From Malacoraja senta (lineage: Eukaryota), in contig CM075995.1 in assembly GCA_038087875.1 (NCBI GenBank), forward strand, positions 5,954,001 to 6,018,000: a stretch of DNA of 64,000 nucleotides, read 5' to 3'. Position numbers and translations under genes: made by a program. Positions 14,411-45,847 of this stretch are shown here, in pieces; positions within the stretch are counted from its first letter, which is position 1, and each line of letters begins with the position of its first letter. The notes under the pieces were generated by a model that saw only the letters and a list, made by a program, of their open reading frames with translations, ran no database searches and had not been told where the DNA came from.

Positions 14411-14610
14411 NNNNNNNNNNNNNNNNNNNNNNNNNNNNNNNNNNNNNNNNNNNNNNNNNNNNNNNNNNNNNNNNNNNNNNNNNNNNNNNNNNNNNNNNNN
14501 NNNNNNNNNNNNNNNNNNNNNNNNNNNNNNNNNNNNNNNNNNNNNNNNNNNNNNNNNNNNNNNNNNNNNNNNNNNNNNNNNNNNNNNNNNNNNNNNNNNN
14601 NNNNNNNNNN
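14411..14610. other. Assembly gap (200 N)
   Basis: Run of n characters. Confidence 1.
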
Positions 14611-15100
14611 AGATGGCGGAGCGATGCGGCGCTGGAGACGAGGAGCCTGGTGTCACACCCGGCCGGCTGGCAGTCCCTCCTGTCCTTCACTGTCCTCTTC
14701 CTGGCCTGGCTGGCCGGCTTCAGCTCCAGACTATTCGCCGTCATCCGCTTCGAGAAGCATCATCCACGAGTTTGACCCGTGGTGAGGACACGCGTCAGCG
14801 GCTCCCATTTTTTTCTGCCAGGGACTGGGTGCGGGAGAGTGGGCGACAAGGCCGGGAGTGGGATGAGGGTCGATAGGTGTCGGACGGGGACAGTGGGGGA
14901 TCGGGGGGGGGGTGGGGGATACGGACCGGGTGTCGGGGTGGGGGGAAGTGAGCGCCAAGGTAGTGGAGTCGGGAGGATAGGAGTCGGCGGTAGACAAGGG
15001 GGTAGGAGAAGGGGATAGAGGTCGGAGGGTACAGGGGGTAGGAGCCGGGGTTGAGCGGTGGGAGACGGGGGGGGGGGGGTGTCAGTGTTAGGCGTGTGGG
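14611..15100. promoter_or_regulatory. CpG-rich/G-rich region over STT3B exon 1 and the start of intron 1
   Basis: High GC and many CpGs relative to the AT-rich background, with many G-runs on +. The promoter and 5'UTR probably fall in the adjacent gap. Confidence 0.65.
14613..14781 (+). CDS. STT3B: STT3B (oligosaccharyltransferase catalytic subunit B), coding exon 1, with two apparent 1-nt frameshifts in this assembly
   Basis: ATG at 14613 gives MAE. From 14653 the frame reads [34 protein letters not shown], then an extra A at 14755, then [16 protein letters not shown]. This closely matches vertebrate STT3B [43 protein letters not shown] as recalled, with a phase-2 donor in the Trp codon at 14782. 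Confidence 0.93.
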
Positions 15101-24335: not shown

Positions 24336-27300
24336 AATGAATGAATGAATGAATGAATACTTTATTGTCATTATAACATGTAAACATGTACAACGAAATT
24401 AGAAATGCCAACCAGTCAGTGCACCATTCACACATTTTCTTAGAGCAAAAGTCTAAGATAAACAACTAAAATAAATAACATGAAAAAAAACAACACATTC
24501 TTCTGTCTATTTCACAGTCCCTTTGGTGTGTAGCGCACCTGTACTCATTTGGTGGCTACATTAAGTGTATTTATTGCTGTTGGATAAAAACTGTTTTTGA
24601 GTCTGTTTGTCCTTGTCCTCATTGATCTGTACCGTCTGCCTGACGGCAGCAGTACAAACAGGGAGTGACCGGGGTGGAAAATGTCCTTTATGATCTTCTT
24701 GGATTTTTTGAGACAGTGGGAACTGTGTTGGTCCTTCAAGGTGAGGAGAGGGCAGCCGATAATCTTCTGGGCGTTGTCAATTGCCCTCTGGAGCGCTTTC
24801 CTCTTAGCCGCTGTGCAGCTGGTGTACCATACGCATACACAGTATGTTAAGATGCTCTCAATTGAGCATCGATAAAAGGACAGCAGCAGTCTCTGGGTGA
24901 TGTTGTTCTTCCTGAGCACCCTCAGGAAGTACAGTCTCTGCTGGACCTTTTTCAGCAGCGCAGAGGTGTTCACGCTCCAAGTCAGGTCCTCCTCAATGTG
25001 GATTCCCAGGAAGCGGAAATCCGCCACCCTTTCCACACAGTCCCCATTGATGATTAGTGGTGTAATGTCCGTTTTCTTCTTCCTGTAGTCAATTATGAGC
25101 TCCTTGGTCTTTGAGGTGTTGAGGAGCAGGTTATTTTCTCCACACCACCCTGTCAGCTGCTCCACCTCATCCCTGTAGGCGTACTCATCCCCCCCAGAGA
25201 TGAGCCCCACCACCGTGGTGTCATCCACGAATTTGACAATGGTGTTACTGTGGTGGGCGGGGGTGCAGTCATATGTGTAGATGGTGTAAAACAGGGGGCT
25301 CAGCACGCAGCCCTGTGGAGAGCCAGTACTGAGGCTGAGGGCCGTAGATGTGTGACGGCCCACTCTGACTCTCTGACTGCGACCTGACAGGAAGCTCTTT
25401 ATCCACATGTAGGTGGAGTGTGGAAGTCCCAGGTCCCCCAGTTTGTCCACCAGTTTGTGGGGAAGGATGGTGTTAAAAGCAGAGCTGTAGTCCACAAAGA
25501 GCATCCGCACGTAGCTCCCCCGCTGCTCCAGATGTGACAGTGCAGCATGGAGGGCTGTGACTACAGCATCCTCTGTGGATCTATTCGCTCTATACGCAAA
25601 CTGGTGGGGGTCAAAGCTTCGGGGCAGGAGTGATGTGATGTGACCCCGGACCAGTTTTTCAAAACACTTCATCACCACTGGTGTGAGTGCGACTGGCCGG
25701 TAGACGTTGAGACTGGAAATGTGGGGGTTTTTGGGCAAGGGGACTATGGTGGAGGACTTCAGACAGGATGGGACAGTGGACTGGGCCAGAGACTGGTTGA
25801 AAATCCTCGTAAAGACTCCAGCCAGCTGGTCTGCGCAGTCCTTCAGCACGCGTCCAGAAACGCCGTCGGGTCCAGCAGCCTTCCTCGGATTAATGGCCCG
25901 CAGCGTGCGCCTCACCTCATGCTCCTCTATTTTGAAGGATAAGCTGCTGTGGACCATGTGGTGTGATATGGCTGTCTCTGGTGGCTCCACTTCAAAGCGA
26001 GCAAAGAAGAGGTTCAGCTCCTCTGCCAGCGAGGCGTCACCTTCAGCAGCTCCAAGGTTGGTTTTGTAGTTGGTGAGATACTGGATCCCCTGCCACACCT
26101 GCCTGCTGTTGTTACTGTCCAGGTGGTCCTCTAACCTCCTTCTGTAGTCTGATTTGGCCTCTCTGATGCCTCTCTTCAGGTTAGCTCGGGCCGTGCTGTA
26201 TAAAGCCCTATCGCCAGACCTAAAAACGGTGTTTCTCTCTTTTAACAGCCGCTGGACCTCCCTGGTCATCCAGGGCTTCTGGTTGGGGTAGACCTGGATG
26301 CGTTTGTCCACTGTGACAGTGTCCATGCAGTTTTTAATGTAACATAGTACACTGTCTGTGAACACCTCCAGGTCCTGGTGTTCAAACACATCACAGTTGG
26401 TCCTGTCGAAGCAGTCCTGCAGCTGCTGAGAGGCGCCATCAGGCCAAGTTGTGATGGTAGGCGCAGTTTTCCGGAGGGGGGCATATGCAGGAATTAAAAG
26501 CAGGGACATATGGTCAGACTGGCCCAGGTGTGGTAGTGGTCTAGCCCTGTAGCCCAGCTTGATGTTGGAGTAGACCTTGTCCAATGTGTTAGCTCCTCTT
26601 GTAGCACATTTAACATGCTGATAGAATTTGGGGAGCATTGCCTTCAAGTCCGCGTGATTAAAGTCCCCTGCTATGATGTGAACAGCGTCAGGATATGTGC
26701 TCTGATGGCTGCTAGTGCTACCATACAATTGTCCGATAGCCGAGTTCGCATTAGCATCCGGTGGTATGTATATCACAGTTATCATGACGACAGTAAACTC
26801 TCTAGGGAGATAAATGGTCCTGCATTTATCAGTCACATACTCCAGGTCCGGGGAGCAGTGACTGTCTACAATCATTGTGTTAGTACACCAGTTGTTGTTC
26901 ACGTACACACAGAGCCCTCCTCCTCTGCTCTTACCAGAGTCTCTTGTCCTGTCATGACGCTGTGCGGTGTAGCCTGTTAGCTCGATAGCAGAGTCCGGAA
27001 TGAGTGAATGAAGCCATGTCTCCGTGATCAACAGAATGCAGCTGTCCTTCACGGCGTTGTTAGCTGCAGTTTGTAGCCTCAGTTCATCCATCTTGTTAGC
27101 GAGGGATCTGGCGTTCATGAGAAACAGGCTGGGAAGCGGTGATTTGAGTGGCTGCCTCCGTAGCCTGGCTAGCGCGCCGGCCCTGCAGCCTCGCTTTTTC
27201 CTTCTCTCTGCGCCGCCTTCGCCTCCTCCCCGCTGGGATGGTAATCCACGGAGAGCCGGGACTCCTCGCTATGTCCACCGGGATCCTATGTAAACTGACA

Positions 27301-31854: not shown

Positions 31855-33504
31855 CTAGACTAAGTGGGACCTGTTGGTCCCCCAACGCAACCCGTTTCCC
31901 AATGCAATATTCCACCACTCACCCGTTCCCCAATGCAACCCGTCCCCCCAACGCAATATTGCACCACTCACGCATAGACCCCAACTATGCAGGCACGGCT
32001 CATTTTCCCATATCCCCCAGTATTCCCTCCCCCTCCTCTTTGCCCTCCCTCTTCTTTCCCCTCACCTCCCTCACCTCTCCCTCCCTCTCCCCTACCCTCA
32101 GTCACTCCCTCCCCCCCCCATAACTCCTCTCTCCTCCCTAGCCCCCTCCTATCCCTATATCCCCCGCACCTCAACTCCCCCTATCCCTCCTGATCTCCCC
32201 CACTGCCCTCTCCCTCTATTCCCCACTCCCTACCTCTCCCACTCCCCTCTCCTCTTCCTCTATTCCCCCTCCTCCCCCACTCTCCTCCCCTCCCCACTTT
32301 CCCACTCTCCCTCCCTACCCGTTCCTCTCCCTCAATCCCCCCACTCTCCCTCCTCACCTCCCCAGGATTCTTCCCCTCTCCTCCCCAATCCCTCTCTCCC
32401 TCTCCTTTCCCCTGCTCTCAGTCACTCCCTCCCTCCCTCCCTCCATAAAAATCAGCATCTGCAGTTCCTTCCTCCACAGGACATTCATTGTTAGCTGCGG
32501 TTTAGGTCCCGTTGACTTGACGATTGGACCAGTTTGCATTGTGTGTGTGTGTGTGTGTGTGTGTGTGAGTTACTCAAACTCCACGCAAACTGCTCGGCCA
32601 CCCTGCAAGCCAACTCTCCCTCCCTCCCTCTGCCCACTCTGGCTCAGCCGCCGCTTGGCCCATCTCTGCCCGACCGCCCGCTGCTGCCGCTCGGCCCGTC
32701 CCCGCCCTGCCCCCTCACCTGCCTGCTCGCTGCCGCCGCCGGGCCACAGGGGGAGGGGGGGGGTGGGAGATGGAGTCTGTGATTGTCACTGTGGGCACCA
32801 CGAGTTTCGATGAGCTGGTGGAGAAGATCTCCAAGAAGGTCATGAGGGTGAGTTACCACAACGGCGGTGGAGGAGATGGACCCGGGGCGACAGGTAGATG
32901 GGGAGAGGAGTGACTGAAAAGGGAGAGAGAGATTGAACCAGGGTCTCCACTGGGTCCCCACTGGACACCCCCCCCCAAGGCCGCCACCAGTGGTGGGGGA
33001 GACGATAAACAAGTTACAGTCAGTGCGTGGCGCTGACTGAAGGAATCTGCATATGTGCGTGTTTACGAAAGATCCACAGCAACTCGCACATGGTAAAAAT
33101 CAATCTTTATTACATAGGCAAACAGGAACATATCAACTGCCAGCTACTAGCATCTGGCTCCGCTGGCCTGTGTGTGAGAGAGAGACAGTAACTGACCTTG
33201 TGTAGTACTGTAATACCATGTAGAGGGTGGCATGCACATATGTGTGGTGACGGTTATAACTGGCATGAATTAATAAGGGTTAATCTACAGCGCGGTTTTT
33301 AAGATATTTAAATCTCGATAACTTTTACAATATACCACTGATTGGACCAAAACGTGTTGCACTCGCAGCACAGGAGAACGGTGAGTAACCTGGCAAAAAA
33401 TCGTAGTGCTATCGCATGCCGTTTTTGCACAAATAGAAAGACCGTGCAAACCGGTAGAGCACAAGATCAGAGTTTTAGTTATGTATAGATAGATAGTAGA
33501 TAGA
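31855..33504 (-). mobile_element. Non-autonomous Helitron 2 with captured cargo
   Basis: Minus-strand 3' end is hairpin GGGACC-aaca-GGTCCC then ACTTAGTCTAG. The 5' end (plus strand cagagttttagttatgtatagataga...) parallels Helitron 1 (cagagttttaaaagtatatagataga). The exact 5' boundary is uncertain within 33489-33504, and the base after CTAG is not the canonical T. Confidence 0.82.
32770..32853 (+). pseudogene. ALG13: ALG13 exon-1-like fragment with splice donor, inside a Helitron
   Basis: Translates to MESVIVTVGTTSFDELVEKISKKVMR followed by GTGAGT. Compare the ALG13 N-terminus MKCVFVTVGTTSFDDL (glycosyltransferase 28 C-terminal family). No further ALG13 exon was seen. Confidence 0.85.
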
Positions 33505-33589
33505 TGGAGTGGTCCCAGATAGAAGGTTTGCAATTTAAATATGTTGTGATCTTCAGGGCTGCTGTGTCCCTACCCCACAATCAGACTTT

Positions 33590-33870: not shown

Positions 33871-36100
33871 AGGATGGAGAGTGACATTGTTAATTCAGAA
33901 ACAAGGGTTCTGAACTTAAAGAAAGGTAACTTTGAGGGTATGAGCCGTGAATTGGCCAAGATAGGCTGGCAAGTGATTCTTAAAGGGTTGACGGTGGATA
34001 TGCAATGGAAGGCATTTAAAGACTGCATGGATGAACTACAACAATTGTTCATCCCAGTTTGGCAAAAGAATAAATCAGGGAAGGTAGTGAATCCGTGGAT
34101 AACAAGGGAAATCAGGGATAGTATCAAAACAAAAGATGAAGTGTACAAATTAGCCAGAAAAAGCAGCCTACCAGAGGACTGGGAGAAATTCAGAGTCCAG
34201 CAGAGGAGGACAAAGGGCTTAATTAGGAAAGGGAAAATAGATTATGAAAGAAAAGTGGCAGGGAGCATAAAAACTGACTGCAAAAGCTTTTATAGATATG
34301 TGAAGAGAAAATGATTAGTTAAAACAAATGTAGGTCCCTTGCAGTCAGAAACAGGTAAATTGATGATAGGGAACAAGGACATGGCAGACCAATTGAATAA
34401 CTACTTTGGTTCTGTCGTCACTAAGGAAGACATAAATAATCTGCCGGAAATAGCAGGGGACCGCGGGTCAAATGAGATGGAGGAACTGAGTGAAATCCAG
34501 GTTAGCCGGGAAGTGGTGTTAGGTAAATTGAATGGATTAAAGGCCGATAAATCCACAGGGCCAGATAGGCTCGATCCCAGAGTACTTAAGGAAGTAGCCC
34601 CAGAAATAGTGGATGCATTAGTGATAATTTTTCAAAACTCCTTAGATTCTGGAGTAGTTCCTGAGGATTGGAGGATAGCTAATGTAACCCCACTTTTTAA
34701 AAAGGGAGGGAGAGAGAAAACAGGGAATTACAGACCAGTTAGTCGAACATTGGTAGTGGGGAAACTGCTGGTCAGTTATTAAAGATGGGATAGCAGCACA
34801 TTTGGAAAGTGGTGAAATCATTGGACAAAGTCAGCATGGATTTACGAAAGGTAAATCATGTCTGACGAATCTTATAGAATTTTTCGAGGATGTAACTAGT
34901 AGAGTGGATAAGGGAGAACCAGTGGATGTGTTATATCTGGACTTTCAGAAGGCTTTTGACAAGGTCCCACATAAGAGATTAGTATACAAACTTAAAGCAC
35001 ACAGTATTGGGGGTTCAGTATTGATGTGGTTAGAGAACTGGCTGGCAAACAGGAAGCAAAGAGTAGGAGTAAACGGATCCTTTTCAGAATGGCAGGCAGT
35101 GACTAGTGGGGTACCGCAAGGCTCAGTGCTGGGACCCCAGCTATTTACAATATATATTAATGATTTGGACAAGGGAATTGAATGCAACATCTCCAAGTTT
35201 GCGGATGACACGAAGCTGGGGGGCAGTGTTAGCTGTGAGGAGGATGCTAGGAAGCTGCAAGGTGACTTGGATAGGCTGGGTGAGTGGGCAAATGCATGGC
35301 AGATGCAGTATAATGTGGATACATATGAGGTTATCCACTTTGGTGGCAAAAACAGGAAAGTAGACTATCATCTGAATGGTGGCAGATTAGGAAAAGGGTA
35401 GATGCAACGAGACCTGGGTGTCATGGTACACCAGTCATTGAAAGTAGGCATGCAGGTGCAGCAGGCAGTGAAGAAAGCGAATGGTATGTTAGCATTCATA
35501 GCAAAAGGATTTGAGTATAGGAGCAGGGAGGTTCTACTGCAGTTGTACAGGGTCTTAGTGAGACCACACCTGGAGTATTGCGTACAGTTTTGGTCTCCAA
35601 ATCTGAGGAAAGACATTCTTGCCATAGAGGGAGTACAGAGAAGGTTCACCAGACTGATTACTGGGATGTCAGGACTTTCATATGAAGAAAGACTGGATAG
35701 ACTCGGCTTGTACTCGCTAGAATTTAGAAGATTGAGAGGGGATCTTATAGAAACTTACAAAATTCTTAAGGGGTTGGACAGGCTAGATGCAGGAAGATTG
35801 TTCCCGATGTTGGGGAAGTCCAGGACAAGGGGTCACAGTTTAAGGATAAAGGGGAAATCTTTTAGGACCGAGATGAGAAAAACATTTTTCACACAGAGAT
35901 TGGTGAATCTCTGGAATTCTATGCCACAGAAGGTAGTTGAGGCCAGTTCATTGGCTATATTTAAGATGGAGTTAGACGTGGCCCTTGTGGCTAAAGGGAT
36001 CAGGGGGTATGGAGAGAAGGCAGGTACAGGATACTGAGTTGGATGATCAGCCATGATCATATTGAATTGCGGTGCAGGCGCGAAGGGCCTAATGGCCTAG
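33871..36100 (+). mobile_element. Young 5'-truncated CR1/HER1 LINE (ORF2 RT)
   Basis: Four consecutive ORF pieces across 33874-36037 with LDFQKAFDKVPH, SGVPQGSVLGP and KFADD, and few disruptions. Confidence 0.95.
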
Positions 36101-36163
36101 CCAATGGTGGCTACACAGGCTCTCATATAGGCACATGATAATCACGTGTAGGCAGAGAAGATT

Positions 36164-36957
36164 ATAGTGTCATACAGTGATACAATGTCGAAACAGGCCC
36201 TTCGGCTCAACTTGCCCACACTGGCCAACATGTCCCAGCTACACTAGTCGTACCTACCTGTGTTTGGTCCATATCCCTCCAATCCTGTCCTATCAATGTA
36301 CCTGTCTAAATGTTTCTTAAATGTTGGGATGGTCCCTGCCTGCACTACCACCTCTGGCAGCTTGTTCCATAAACCCACCACCCTTTGTGTGAAAAAGGTT
36401 ACTACTCAGATTCCTATTAAATCTTTTCCCCTTCACCGTAAACCTATGTCCTCTGGTCCTCGATTCGCCTACTCTGGGCAAGCGATTCTGTGCATCTACC
36501 CGATCTATTCCTCTCATGATTTTATACACCTTTATAAGATCACCCCACATCCTTCTGCGCTCCAAGAAATAGAATCCCAGCCTACTCAACCACTCCCTAT
36601 AGCACAGACCCTCTAGTCCTGCCTACATCCTTGTAAATCTTCTCTGTACCCTTTCCAGCTTGACAATATATTTCCTATAACACGGTGCCCAGAACTGAAC
36701 ATTATACTCTAAATGAAGCCTCACCAACGTCTTTTACAACTACAACATGACCTCCCAATTTCTATATTCAATACTCTGATTGATGAAGGCCAATGTGCCA
36801 AAAGTATTTTTGACCACCCTATCTACCTGTGACTCCACCTTCAAGAAACCATGCACCTGTACTCCTAGATTCCTCTGCTCTACAACACTCCCCAGAGCCC
36901 TACCATTCACTGTGTAGGTCCTGCCCATGTTAGACCTCCCAAAATGCAGCATCTCAC
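36164..36957 (-). mobile_element. CR1 3' fragment
   Basis: LHFGRSN...LKVESQVDRVVK and LERRRMWGDLIKVYKIMRG. Confidence 0.88.
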
Positions 36958-36969
36958 TGCAACATTAGT

Positions 36970-38755
36970 GATAGAAACATAGAAAATAGGTGCAGGAGTA
37001 GGCCATTTGGCCCTTCGAGCCTGCACCGCCATTCAATATGATCATGGCTGATCATCCAACTCAGTATCCCGTACCTGCCTTCTCTCCATACCCCCTGATC
37101 CCTTTAGCCACAAGGGCCACATCTAACTCCCTCTTAAATATAGCCAATGAACTGGCCTCAACTACCCTCTGTGGCAGAGAGTTCCAGAGATTCACCACTC
37201 TCTGTGTGAAAAGGTTTTTCCTCATCTCGGTCTTAAAGGATTTCCCCCTTATCCTTCAGCTGTGACCCCTTGTCCTGGACTTCCCCAACATCGGGAACAA
37301 TCTTCCTGCATCTAGCCTGTCCAACCCCATAAGAATTTTGTACGTTTCTATAAGATCCCCTCTCAATCTCCTAAATTCTAGCGAGTATAAGCCAAGTCTA
37401 TCCAGTCTTTCTTCATATGAAAGTCCTGACATCCCAGGAATCAGTCTGGTGAACCTTGTCTGCACTCCCTCTATGGCTATAATGTCCTTCCTCAGATTTG
37501 GAGACCAAAACTGTACGCAATACTCCAGGTGTGGTCTCACCAAGACCCTGTACAACTGCAGTAGAACCTCCCTGCTCCTATACTCAAATCCTCTTGCTAT
37601 GAAGGCCAACATACCATTCGCTTTCCTCACTGCCTGCTGCACCTGCATGCCTACTTTCAATGACTGGTGTACCATGACACCCAGGTCTCGCTGCATCTCC
37701 CCATTTCCTAATCGGCCACCATTTAGATAATAGTCTGCCTTCTCGTTTTTGCCACCAAAGTGGATAACCTCACATTTATCCACATTATACTGCATCTGCC
37801 AAACATTTGCCCACTCACCCAGCCTATCCAAGTCACCTTGCAGTCTCCTAGCATCCTCCTCACAGCTAACACTGCCCCCCAGCTTAGTGTCATCCGCAAA
37901 CCTGGAGATGTTGCTTTCAATTCCCTCGTCCAGATCATTAATATAAATTGTAAATAGCTGGGGTCCCAGCACTGAGCCTTGCGGTACCCCACTAGTCACT
38001 GCCTGCCATTGTGAAAAGGACCCGTTTACTCCTACTCTTTGCTTCCTGTTTGCCAGCCAGTTCTCTATCCACATCAATACTGAACCCCCAATACCGTGTG
38101 ATTTAAGTTTGTATCCTAATCTCTTATGTGGTACCTTGTCGAAAGCCTTCTGAAAGTCCAGATACAACACATCCACTGGTTCTCCCCTATCCACTCTACT
38201 AGTTACATCCTCGAAAAATTCTATAAGAGTCGTCAGACACGATTTACCTTTCGTAAATCCATGCTGACTTTGTCCAATGATTTCACCACTTTCCAAATGT
38301 GCTGCTATCCCATCTTTAATAACTGATTCTAGCAGTTTCCCCACTACCGATGTTAGACTAACTGGTCTGTAATTCCCCGTTTTCTCTCTCCCTCCCTTCT
38401 TAAAAAGTGGGGTTACGTTTGCTACCCTCCAATCCTCAGGAACTACTCCAGAATCTAAAGAGTTTTGAAAAATTATCATTAATGCATCCACTATTTCTGG
38501 AGCTACTTCCTTAAGTACTCTGGGATGCAGCCTATCTGGCCCTGGTGATTTATCGGCCTTTAATCCATTCAATTTACCCAACACCACTTCCCGACTAACC
38601 TGGATTTCACTCAGTTCCTCCATCTCCTTTGACCCGCGGCCCCCTGCTATTTCCGGCAGATTATTTATGTCTTCCTTAGTGAAGACGGAACCAAAGTAGT
38701 TATTCAATTGGTCCGCCATATCCTTGTTCCCCATGATCATTTCACCTGTTTCTGA
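36970..38755 (-). mobile_element. Young 5'-truncated CR1/HER1 LINE with a 12-bp flanking duplication
   Basis: 494-aa open RT ORF at 37256-38740. TGCAACATTAGT occurs at 36958-36969 and 38756-38767. Confidence 0.95.
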
Positions 38756-41942: not shown

Positions 41943-42596
41943 GGGACAAGTTGTTACGTGAGCACCAGTCCGCCAGGTTCTGCACCTCCGCTCTAGTTTG
42001 TTTCATCACCGTTGGTGATCAGCCCGATCACCGTTGTGTAGTCTGCAAACTTGACGATGGTGTTGGTGTCGAATGCAGGAACACAGTCGTGTGTGAAGAG
42101 GGAGTAGAGCATGGGGCTCAGTACACAGCCCTGTGGTGTGCCGGTGCTCAGGGTGATAGTGGAGGACAGGTGCGGGCCCAGTCTCACTGCCTGCGGTCGC
42201 TCCGTCAGAAATTTCAGGATCCAGTCGCATATCGGCGAGCTGAGGCCTAGCTGGTGGAGATTGGTGGTGAGCTTGGTCATATGCTCATAGTTCAGGATTT
42301 GAACAGATTCTGTTCCTTTTTGCAGCCTCATTTCATATCTTTGTCATTGCACTACTAAACTCTGTGTCTCTGGGCACTAGCCAACTTGGCAAAAATATCT
42401 CCCACAACAATTTCAAGTAACCTACACCCCTGGTATTCTCCCACACGCACTCACCTGTCCACCTAGTTTTTCCTCCCTTTGTACAACTCTCCCACCCCAC
42501 CTCCCTCCACCCAACTCCATCTGCCCATCATCTCCAAGTCAGTTTCCATCTATCACCTTTCAGCTGCCGTCTATCCACACCTACACACCCCATATA

Positions 42597-45500
42597 CAGT
42601 GGCTTGCAAAAGTTTTCATACCCCTTGAACTTTTCCACATTTTGTCACGTTACAACCACGAACGTAAATGTATTTTATTGGGATTTTATGTGATAGACCA
42701 ACACAAAGTGGTGCATAATTGTGAAGTGCAAGGAAAATGATACATGGTTTTCAAATTTTTTTACAAATAAAAAACTGAAAAGTGTCGCGTGCAAAAGTAT
42801 TCAGCCCCCCTGAGTCAATACTTTGTAGAACCACCTTTCGCTGCAATTACAGCTGCAAGTCTTTTGGGGTATGTCTCTACCAGCTTTGCACATCTAGAGA
42901 CTGAAATTTTTGCCCATTCTTCTTTGCAAAATAGCTCAAGCTCAGTCAGATTGGATGGAGAGCGTTTGTGAACAGCAATTTTCAAGTCTTGCCAGAGATT
43001 CTCAATTGGATTTAGGTCTGGACTTTGACTGGGCCATTCTAACACATGAATATGCTTTGATCTAAACTATTCCATTGTAGCTCTGGCTGTATGTTTAGGG
43101 TCGTTGTCCTGCTGGAAGGTGAACCTCCGCCCCAGTCTCAAGTCTTTTGCAGACTCTAACAGGTTTTCTTCCAAGATTGCCCTGTATTTATCCAGGTCCT
43201 GACAGGATATTCTCGAGGACATTGAGGGAAGTTAGTGTAGAAATAGCAGGGGCTATGACAGAAATATTTCAAATGTCATTAGAAACGGGAATAGTGCTGG
43301 AGGATTGGCGTACTGCGCAGGTTCTTCCGTTGTTTAAAAAGGGTTCAAAGAGTAAACCTAGCAATTATAGACCTGTTAGTTTGACGTCAGTGGTGGGCAA
43401 ATTAATGGAAAGGATACTTAAAGATAATATATATAAGCATCTGGATAAGCTGGGTCTGATTAGGAACAGTCAACATGGATTTGTGCCTGGAAGGTCATGT
43501 TTGACTAATCTAGAATTTTTCAAAGAGGTTACTAGGGAAATTGATGAGGGTAAAGCAGTGGATGTTGTCTATATGGACTTCAGTAAGGCCTTTGACAAGG
43601 TTCCTCATGTAAGGTTGGTTAAGAAGATTAAATTGTTGGGTATTAATGGTGGAGTAGGAAGATGGATTCAACAGTGGCTGAATGGGAGATGGCAGAGAGT
43701 AATGGTGGATGGCTGTTTGTCAGGTTGGAGGCCGGTGACTAGTGGGGTGCCTCAGGGGTCTGTGTTGGGTCCACTGTTGTTTGTCATGTACATCAATGAT
43801 CTGGATGATGATGTGGAAAATTGGATTAGTAAGTATGCAGATGATACTAAGATAGGTGGTGTGGTGGATAATGAAGAAGATTTTCAAAGTCTACAGAGAG
43901 ATTTAGGCCATTTGGAAGAGTGGGCTGAAAGATGGCAGATGGAGTTTAATGCTGATAAATGTGAGGTACTACATCTCGGCAGGACAAATCAAAATAGGAC
44001 GTACATGGTAAATGGTAGAGAATTGAGGAATGCAGTTGAACAGAGGGATCTAGGAATAACGGTGCATAGTTCCCTGAAGGTGGAATCTCATGTAGATAGG
44101 GTGGTAAAGAAAGCTTTTGGGGTGCTGGCCTTTATAAATCAGAGCATTGTAATTGGATGTAATGTTAAAATTGTACAAGGCATTGGTGAGGCCAATTCTG
44201 GAGTATGGAGTACAATTTTGGTCGCCTAATTATAGGAAGGATGTCAACAAAATAGAGAGAGTACAGAGGAGATTTACTAGAATGTTGCCTGGGTTTCAGC
44301 AACTAAGTTACAGAGAAAGGTTGAACAAGTTAGGTCTTTATTCTTTGGAGCGCAGAATGTTAAGAGGGGACTTGATAGACGTCTTTAAAATTATGAGCGG
44401 GTTAGACAGAGTTGACGTGGATAAGCTTTTTCCATTGAGAGTAGGAAAGATTCAAACAAGGGGACATGACTTGAGAATTAAGGGACAGAAGTTTAGGGGT
44501 AACATTAGGGGGAACTTCTTTACTCGGAGAGTGGTAGCTGTGTGGAATGAGCTTCCAGTGGAAGTGGTGGAGGCTGGTTCGATTTTATCCTTTAAAAATA
44601 GATTGGATGGGTATATGGACGGGAAAGGAATGGAGGGTTATGGCCTGAGTGCAGGTAGATGGGACTAGGGGGAAGTATTTATTTATAAAAAAATAAAAAA
44701 TAAAAATTTAAAAAAAAATGTTCGGCACGGACTTGAAGGGCCGAGATGGCCTGTTTCCGTGCTGTAATGGTTATATGGTTATTTGGCTCCATCCATCTTC
44801 CCATCAACTCTGACCAGCTTCCCTGTCCCTGCTGAAGAAAAGCATCCCCACAGCATGATGCTGCCACCACCATGTTTCACAGTGGGGATGGTGTGTTCAG
44901 GGTGATGTGCAGTGTTAGGTTTCCGCCACACATAGCGTTTTGCATTTAGGCCAAAAACTTCAATTTTGGTCTCATCTGACCAGAGCACCTTCCTCCACAT
45001 GTTTGCTGTGTCCCCCACATGGCTTGTGGCAAACTGCAAACGGGACTTCTTATGGCTTTTTTTCAACAATGGCTTTCTTCTTGGCACTCTTCCATAAAGG
45101 CCCGATTTGTGGAGTGCACGACTAATAGTTGTCCTGTGGACAGATTCTCCCACCTGAGCTATGGATCTCTGCAGCTCCTCCAGAGTTACCATGGGCCTCT
45201 TGGCTGCTTCTCTGATCAATGCTCTCCTTGCCCGGCCTGTCAGTTTAGGTGGACGGCCATGTCTTGGTAGGTTTGCAGTTGTGCCATACTCTTTCCATTT
45301 TCGGATGATGGATTGAACAGTGCTCCGTGAGATGTTCAAAGCTTGGGATATTTTTTTATAACCTAACCCTTCTTTAAACTTCTCCACAACTTTATCCCTG
45401 ACCTGTCTGGTGTGTTCCTTGGGCTTCATGATGCTGTTTGTTCACTAATGTTCTCTAACAAACCTATGAGGCCTTCACAGAACAGCTGTATTTATACTGT

Positions 45501-45808
45501 GATTAGATTACACACAAGTGGACTCTATTTACTAATTAGGTGACTTCTGAAGGCAATTGGTTGCACAGGATTTTATTTAGGGGTATCAGAGTGAAGGGGG
45601 CTGAATACTTTTGCACGCGACACTTTTCAATTTTTTATTTGTAAAAAAATTTGAAAACCATGTATCATTTTCCTTCCACTTCACAATTATGCGCCACTTG
45701 GTGTTGGTCTATCACATAAAATCCCAATAAAATACATTTACGTTTGTGGTTGTAACGTGACAAAATGTGGAAAAGTTCAAGGGGTATGAATACTTTTGCA
45801 AGCCACTG
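42597..45808 (-). mobile_element. Tc1/mariner DD34E transposon, Passport-like, complete but interrupted by CR1
   Basis: TA-CAGTGGCTTGCAAAAG...CTTTTGCAAGCCACTG-TA with TIRs of about 210 bp. The transposase spans about 45429-44780 plus 43184-42815, with WSDETK, QQDND and SPDLNPIE, and has one TAG stop near 43067. Confidence 0.96.
43190..44779 (+). mobile_element. CR1 LINE (5' truncated) inserted in the Tc1 transposase, 5-bp TSD
   Basis: RT ORFs at 43147-44229 and 44153-44668 (KYADD). TATTT occurs at 43185-43189 and 44780-44784. Confidence 0.95.
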
Positions 45809-45847
45809 TAGCTATATACTGGCAATCATTCTTCTTCCCTCAGAACT

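Follow-up and report, generated by a model that had tools for sequence, protein, structure and literature searches.

A Helitron1-type element carrying the 5' end of ALG13, amplified to several hundred copies in the skate Malacoraja senta

The closest described counterpart of the element reported here is HelibatN3 of the bat Myotis lucifugus, in which the NUBPL promoter and 5'UTR travel with the first exon and part of an intron, in about a thousand copies (PMC4224331). According to the sections of that report and of a second one on which we draw, HelibatN3 traps exons in cells (PMC4778049), captures are found in 110 of 645 bat Helitron families and involve 54 genes, the captured pieces come preferentially from promoters, from first exons and from first introns, and captures of gene 5' ends reach higher copy numbers (PMC4224331). 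Heli1Xen1 of Xenopus laevis, as presented in the available part of its description, is a Helitron1 with CDS fragments, 17 of 19 of which come from gene 5' ends (PMC12001565). A model of how such pieces are acquired, 3' read-through, has been demonstrated for Helraiser, again according to the portion of the source consulted (PMC4778049).

Here we describe a Helitron1-type element that carries the 5' end of ALG13 and lies in a 64,000-nucleotide stretch of the genome of the skate Malacoraja senta (C19:5954001-6018000; hereafter the window). Like HelibatN3, as far as the parts of the two bat reports at hand describe it, the skate element is non-autonomous, reaches high copy number and carries the start of a housekeeping gene, namely a putative promoter with the 5'UTR, the first coding exon with its donor, and a portion of intron 1; unlike HelibatN3, it holds ALG13, contributes 27 codons rather than 6, and includes the tail of a host SINE with an acceptor-like end (PMC4224331, PMC4778049). 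Promoter and trap activity have been demonstrated for HelibatN3 in these same parts; in the skate element they would be hypothetical. The cargo runs in reverse to the Helitron, as in the part of the bat report that deals with HelibatN217.1, whose TMBIM4 fragment represents another gene and another lineage (PMC4224331). With Heli1Xen1 the skate element shares its class, a 5'-skewed capture and a non-mammalian vertebrate host, but the available description of the frog system gives at most 17 copies per capture and 64 insertions in all, against roughly 300-420 for the skate capture (PMC12001565).

The architecture is already described for HelibatN3; what is new is the skate lineage and the gene. 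A first, sequence-only reading of the window was not aware of such a capture having been described in cartilaginous fish, and in the open-access literature covered we likewise found no report of a Helitron capture of ALG13 or of any such capture in these animals. ALG13 is absent from the bat captures in the main text and four of five supplementary files of the relevant report (PMC4224331), and the HELIANO text mentions no shark or skate. Our preferred reading, to which we assign a probability of about 0.9, is that a non-autonomous Helitron1 captured the ALG13 5' end once and was amplified in trans, that its copies decayed neutrally, and that the copy in the window is a passenger.

The element and its cargo in the window

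The element occupies 31855..33489 on the minus strand (1635 bp) and has ends common to other copies; lengths range from 924 to 1668 bp in the 21 copies with both canonical ends. It shows the canonical features of a Helitron1, namely a 5' TC start, a CTRR 3' end, here CTAG (31855..31858, minus strand), and a GC-rich subterminal hairpin shortly before that end (31866..31881, minus strand; 6-bp stem, 7 nt from CTAG). A hairpin-CTAG terminus occurs once in the window and in none of 100 shuffles, while the hairpin of the window copy has a z of -2.4 (5 of 200 shuffles were as stable) and that of another copy, L010, a z of only -0.9. Upstream of the hairpin, about 22 nt of the 3' terminus are deleted in the window copy relative to other copies. 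The 3' backbone module (31882..32447, minus strand) consists of subterminal repeats and a low-complexity tract that is purine-rich on the element strand; it is common to cargo-less and other-cargo relatives, and 28 of 40 sampled relatives match it over the terminal 176 nt. All 40 match the 5' backbone module (33290..33489, minus strand), which starts with TC preceded by A. The sequence-only reading had recognized the CTAG at 31855 and the 3' hairpin, but the 5' TC end lies at 33489 and not, as it proposed, at 33504, which falls in a TCTA-type microsatellite outside the element (33490-33505). Next to the 5' module is a solo-LTR-like repeat of 230 bp (33060..33289, minus strand) with TG...CA ends, a poly(A) signal and a 5-bp target duplication with one CpG change, a later insertion that among the aligned copies is present only in the window copy. 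A genome search for its relatives gave 713 candidates, 40 of which were scored; they have sharp ends, and some are paired 3.5-8.4 kb apart.

Between the two backbone modules, antisense to the element, lies the captured ALG13 fragment (32448..33017, plus strand), which is homologous to C7:5532230-5532837 and extends to 5532858 in other copies. The full cargo amounts to about 630 bp, of which the SINE tail accounts for 30 nt, upstream DNA for 305 nt, the coding exon for 81 nt and intron 1 for about 210 nt; in the window it reaches from 320 nt upstream of the ATG to about 170 nt past the donor. It begins with the final ~30 nt of a host repeat that the capture breakpoint has severed (32448..32479, plus strand); this repeat runs on upstream at the parent locus, and we take it to be a SINE from its many dispersed copies. 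The SINE tail ends in a pyrimidine tract plus AG (32478-32479) that resembles a splice acceptor, and the acceptor-like CAG/G is retained in 66 of 75 copies. The following stretch, a putative ALG13 promoter with 5'UTR (32480..32769, plus strand), is homologous to all of the parent DNA between SINE and ATG. It holds a CCAAT box in reverse orientation (32522), retained in 47 of 61 copies, and a GC box (32700-32707), retained in 51 of 61.

The coding part of ALG13 exon 1 (32770..32847, plus strand) is followed by the phase-0 donor of intron 1, GTGAGT, which is identical in the parent (32848..32853, plus strand), and by a remnant of intron 1 with internal deletions (32854..33017, plus strand). ATG, frame and donor are as the sequence-only reading had described them. 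Its exon length of 26 codons also stands for the window copy but is not native, since the parent has 27 codons and the 26-codon form is a 3-nt deletion variant; among the 45 copies that hold the exon, it measures 81 nt in 20 and 78 nt in 7. The window peptide is 83% identical over 23 residues to ALG13 of Leucoraja erinacea (tblastn on the window, E 7e-6), and a Pfam search with the 26-codon exon alone gave no ALG13 family match. The proposed ALG13 N-terminal identity is confirmed at the parent, whose exon is 96% identical to residues 1-28 of L. erinacea ALG13, with its first intron at the ALG13 position, and 79-82% identical to the ALG13 of three sharks.

The intact ATG, frame and donor might suggest a genuine ALG13 gene, nested here or duplicated, or else a retrocopy inserted into the element. 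Such an origin is refuted, as tblastn of the window with four ALG13 proteins detected exon 1 and no other ALG13 exon, and a spliced RNA template is excluded because upstream DNA and intron 1 are present and exon 2 is absent. The joined, intron-free exons of a processed pseudogene inside a Helitron were likewise not found. The retained donor had been taken to imply capture at the DNA level rather than retroposition, and the upstream DNA and intron 1 carried by the fragment bear this out. In a search of 1.84 billion protein representatives with the exon plus its read-through, the one match was to a bacterial repeat protein and was rejected as false; no annotated protein with the read-through tail was present among four matches.

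The parent gene and the direction of transfer

We located the parent in the 1.94-Gb genome by a Pfam PF04101 profile search, which returned 14 matches, one of them short and reading as an ALG13 exon; the others, in long frames, are presumably UDP-glucuronosyltransferases. The parent ALG13 lies on C7, a different chromosome from that of the window, with exon 1 at 5532565 (27 codons, then GTGAGT, the intron following codon 27) and exons 2, 3 and 4 at about 5535748, 5539990 and 5543430. Eleven further matches past exon 4 follow the long isoform in order and, like exons 2-4, are collinear with L. erinacea ALG13. The one true multi-exon ALG13 that had been predicted is this locus, which has no Helitron ends, and the match of the fragment to C7 provides the anticipated similarity to the species' own gene. 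At the parent, the cargo limits are C7:5532230-5532858, the intron-side breakpoint being uncertain by about 20 nt. A GC-rich ~30-nt minisatellite is located in ALG13 intron 1 just past the capture breakpoint (L052:2920-3200, on C7).

The SINE, truncated in the element, is complete at the parent, and a search of 120 kb around the parent revealed no Helitron ends or remnants beside it at E<0.01. Because the parent SINE continues across the breakpoint and no Helitron end lies near the parent, the transfer went from gene to element. The nearest Helitron of the same clade, at C7:5461711-5462789, carries no cargo and lies 70 kb upstream of ALG13. The reverse direction, in which the present ALG13 exon-1 region would derive from, or have been converted by, a Helitron copy, might be read from the unrooted tree of copies, where the parent nests inside the copies beside L179 (88/80). 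However, that tree is a star drawn by midpoint, in which the parent and L179 are both long branches. The shark-like parent peptide, the absence of Helitron ends and the whole SINE also speak against it, as do both non-synonymous differences, at which the parent agrees with L. erinacea ALG13 and not with the majority of the copies. We consider a transfer in this direction very unlikely and largely refuted.

For the transfer from gene to element, two routes were weighed. At the promoter-side junction, three bases, TTA, are common to the parent and to cargo-less elements, and the alignments showed no internal hairpin-CTAG at the cargo junctions. Since such an internal terminus was not seen and the parent has no Helitron end, the balance tips slightly towards capture by repair or template switch at the 3-nt TTA microhomology and away from 3' read-through.

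Copy number, termini and neutral decay

A 29-mer from the exon had 301 genome matches at up to 3 mismatches, the parent included, and an upstream 29-mer had 362; the reversed control gave 0 in both cases. DNA searches produced 418 and 421 first-look candidates, 40 of which were scored in each. The ALG13-cargo subfamily therefore numbers roughly 300-420 copies, and the suspicion that the exon had been amplified genome-wide proved right. We examined 81 copies, the window copy included, after removing 9 of 90 loci that were the same locus or near-identical duplicates. The promoter-side breakpoint is shared, with 75 of 81 copies starting within 2 nt, and on the intron side 59 of 81 extend as far as position 604-629 of 629. 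The same Helitron ends had been expected on other copies: at least one end is present in 74 of 81, with a 3' end in 63, a 5' end in 56 and both in 45, although terminus calls tolerated up to 4-5 edits, so that a small number of these 3' and 5' assignments are loose. None of the three outcomes named in the sequence-only reading as counting against it was observed.

An exact CTAG end was found in 47 of 81 copies, and the next base is T in 44 of these 47; the window copy, one of the 47, has A. The TC start is preceded by A in 36 of 44. A target duplication is absent from 14 of the 21 copies with both canonical ends; six have 1-2 nt and one has 4, giving at most 2 nt in 20 of 21, with the proviso that the copies share ancestry and such counts are not independent. 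Insertion between A and T without target-site duplication thus appears to hold for the family, while the window copy itself has A after CTAG. In six of the 81 copies (L132, L147, L164, L165, L167 and L173), the opening bases of the 5' terminus hold, at one and the same position, the 3' end of another Helitron. Upstream sequence is shared by a single pair of these six, so that the insertions seem to have occurred independently at a hot spot.

At non-CpG sites, the copies diverge from their majority by 4.2% on average and the parent by 3.6%, and the window copy differs from the parent by 7.2%. The tree, built from 67 rows after 14 shorter or split ones were set aside, has the shape of a star, support being obtained for 5 of its 64 inner branches; it is unrooted and drawn by midpoint, and its bootstrap is unsettled. 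We read the copies as the outcome of one capture and one main burst. Selection was assessed in 52 copies picked regardless of the exon, 45 of which hold it. Change rates at the three codon positions are 0.060, 0.076 and 0.068, pN/pS is 0.78 (Fisher p 0.14), and the exon as a whole changes at 0.068 and the donor at 0.053, which is the neutral rate. Among the 45 exon-bearing copies, the ATG is retained in 32 and the GT in 38; ATG, frame, absence of a stop and donor are all intact in 12, and the window copy is of this type. The captured exon decays neutrally, and a few selected copies would be invisible in the pooled rate.

The course of events that we propose would begin with a Helitron1 acquiring a ~630-bp ALG13 5' piece once, antisense, between its 5' and 3' backbone modules. 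A RepHel transposase acting in trans would then have copied the element by rolling-circle copy-out and inserted it between A and T. One main burst would have taken it to roughly 300-420 sites, with neutral decay thereafter, and the copy in STT3B intron 1 would be a passenger in which the deletions and the solo LTR came later.

The copy within STT3B, related elements and their significance

The host of the window copy is an STT3 gene, which we take to be STT3B; a second STT3 gene is located on C2344. Exon 1, with a phase-2 donor, lies at 14613..14781 on the plus strand, and exon 2 starts at C19:6021123, so that intron 1, which contains the element, spans 52,341 nt. STT3 exon 1 reads in three frames and adjoins an assembly gap (14411-14611); its two frameshifts are probably an assembly error. 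Orientation and phase are as the sequence-only reading had stated: the captured exon runs in the sense direction of STT3B, and its phase-0 donor is out of frame with the phase-2 STT3 intron 1. Other features of the window include a 907-aa open frame resembling an endonuclease and reverse transcriptase (24545-27268, minus strand), presumably a LINE; two LINE copies in inverted orientation (34345-38755), whose arms of 1328 and 425 nt are 94-95% complementary; and a transposon interrupted by a LINE (42595-45810), with 222-nt inverted ends (96%) and transposase pieces, which we take to be Tc1-like.

With the same origin, the window copy or a notable share of the copies might instead act as a mobile promoter or exon trap, the promoter firing and the donor splicing to the next host exon, or a 368-nt poison exon lowering STT3B output. 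The window copy is sense to STT3B with CCAAT box, GC box, ATG, frame and donor intact, and the widely retained acceptor-like CAG/G favours an exon trap; a cassette from the acceptor-like site to the donor (32480-32847, 368 nt) is conceivable as an included exon. The available part of the report on HelibatN3, which has the same anatomy, describes exon trapping in cells and a position near start sites in bats (PMC4778049). Either product would run into a stop, at 32811 on inclusion of the cassette and after one codon when the ATG exon is spliced to STT3 exon 2. We nonetheless regard such activity as improbable. CpG observed/expected is 0.49 in the window copy versus 0.83 at the parent, a decay that suggests long methylation or silencing, and exon and donor change at the neutral rate given above. 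The chance of a random copy in the 52-kb intron is about 0.01, and over many genes a copy there is no surprise. Three probable RNA runs from related organisms and one probable DNA run were compared with 8.2 kb of the parent; repeats dominated the alignments, which gave no usable splice joint or start site and speak neither for nor against transcription.

The passenger reading accommodates the location as well. That cargo and host gene both act in N-glycosylation had been noted as a possible coincidence; coincidence suffices and the location needs no further explanation, because a chance of about 0.01 per intron sums over a pathway of a few dozen genes, an assumed number. Nothing beyond neutral insertion is in evidence at STT3B, and the element probably has no effect on the gene.

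The genome also holds candidates for the partner that would have acted in trans. RepHel genes are present, with 112 PF14214 matches in frames of up to 1766 aa, and related hairpin-CTAG/T ends were found in 6 of 8 RepHel regions read. These ends have the same loop and last bases as the ALG13 subfamily and a different stem, and are set in nested arrays. Young RepHel Helitrons (L069-L084) are 90-99% alike and lie in nested head-to-tail arrays of Helitron ends.

The clade itself is large, the 5' terminal 28-mer having 1,566 genome matches and the 3' terminal 28-mer 12,245 (control 0). A sample of 40 elements was drawn from the first 100 exact matches to the 5' 28-mer on C1. The ALG13 cargo is full in one of the 40 and represented by 91 nt in another, and a second cargo, an exon with a SAC3_GANP domain, occurs in four. 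The three genome matches to PF03399 (SAC3_GANP) above the cut-off all sit behind the same Helitron 5' end, with the 3' end visible in two; they correspond to this second cargo and end at a GT donor-like site, the exon being sense to the element. Together with the four sampled elements they form a sister subfamily with the same ends (L193:852-2105, L194, L195, L088, L090, L108 and L125), the captured gene being presumably SAC3D1. No parent of this cargo was found, as all three PF03399 matches in the genome are inside Helitrons. A third, CpG-rich and exon-like piece ending in GTGAGT is present in 24 of the 40 sampled relatives (L099:612-737, L106 and 22 more of L087-L126) and may be ordinary backbone. 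Pfam searches of 13 sister-cargo frames from 7 loci gave no match, nor did protein searches with the second and third cargo, and a PDB search with the sister cargo gave weak yeast Sac3 matches only (E 0.7).

The skate clade holds at least two, and probably three, first-exon-like cargos, a likeness to the capture bias of bats as set out in the parts of that work cited above. A tentative and rather doubtful extension is that the cargo of successful subfamilies is mostly a captured CpG-island first exon with its donor, that captured promoters raise the copying of their own elements, and that some copies seed start sites or poison exons. If true, skates would repeat the bat pattern independently, in a vertebrate that evolves slowly and in which parents and breakpoints can still be read, and the cause of the 5' bias would become testable.

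Taken on its own, the ALG13 element adds cartilaginous fish to the lineages with high-copy Helitron capture of a promoter and first exon, which was known from bats and has low-copy counterparts in Xenopus; here the parent locus and the breakpoints are placed to within a few bases. Its copies are a pitfall for gene annotation and for read mapping at ALG13. Several hundred dispersed promoter-exon-donor cassettes are material from which new start sites and exon traps could arise. The sister cargos make skates a second system in which to ask why Helitrons favour gene 5' ends.
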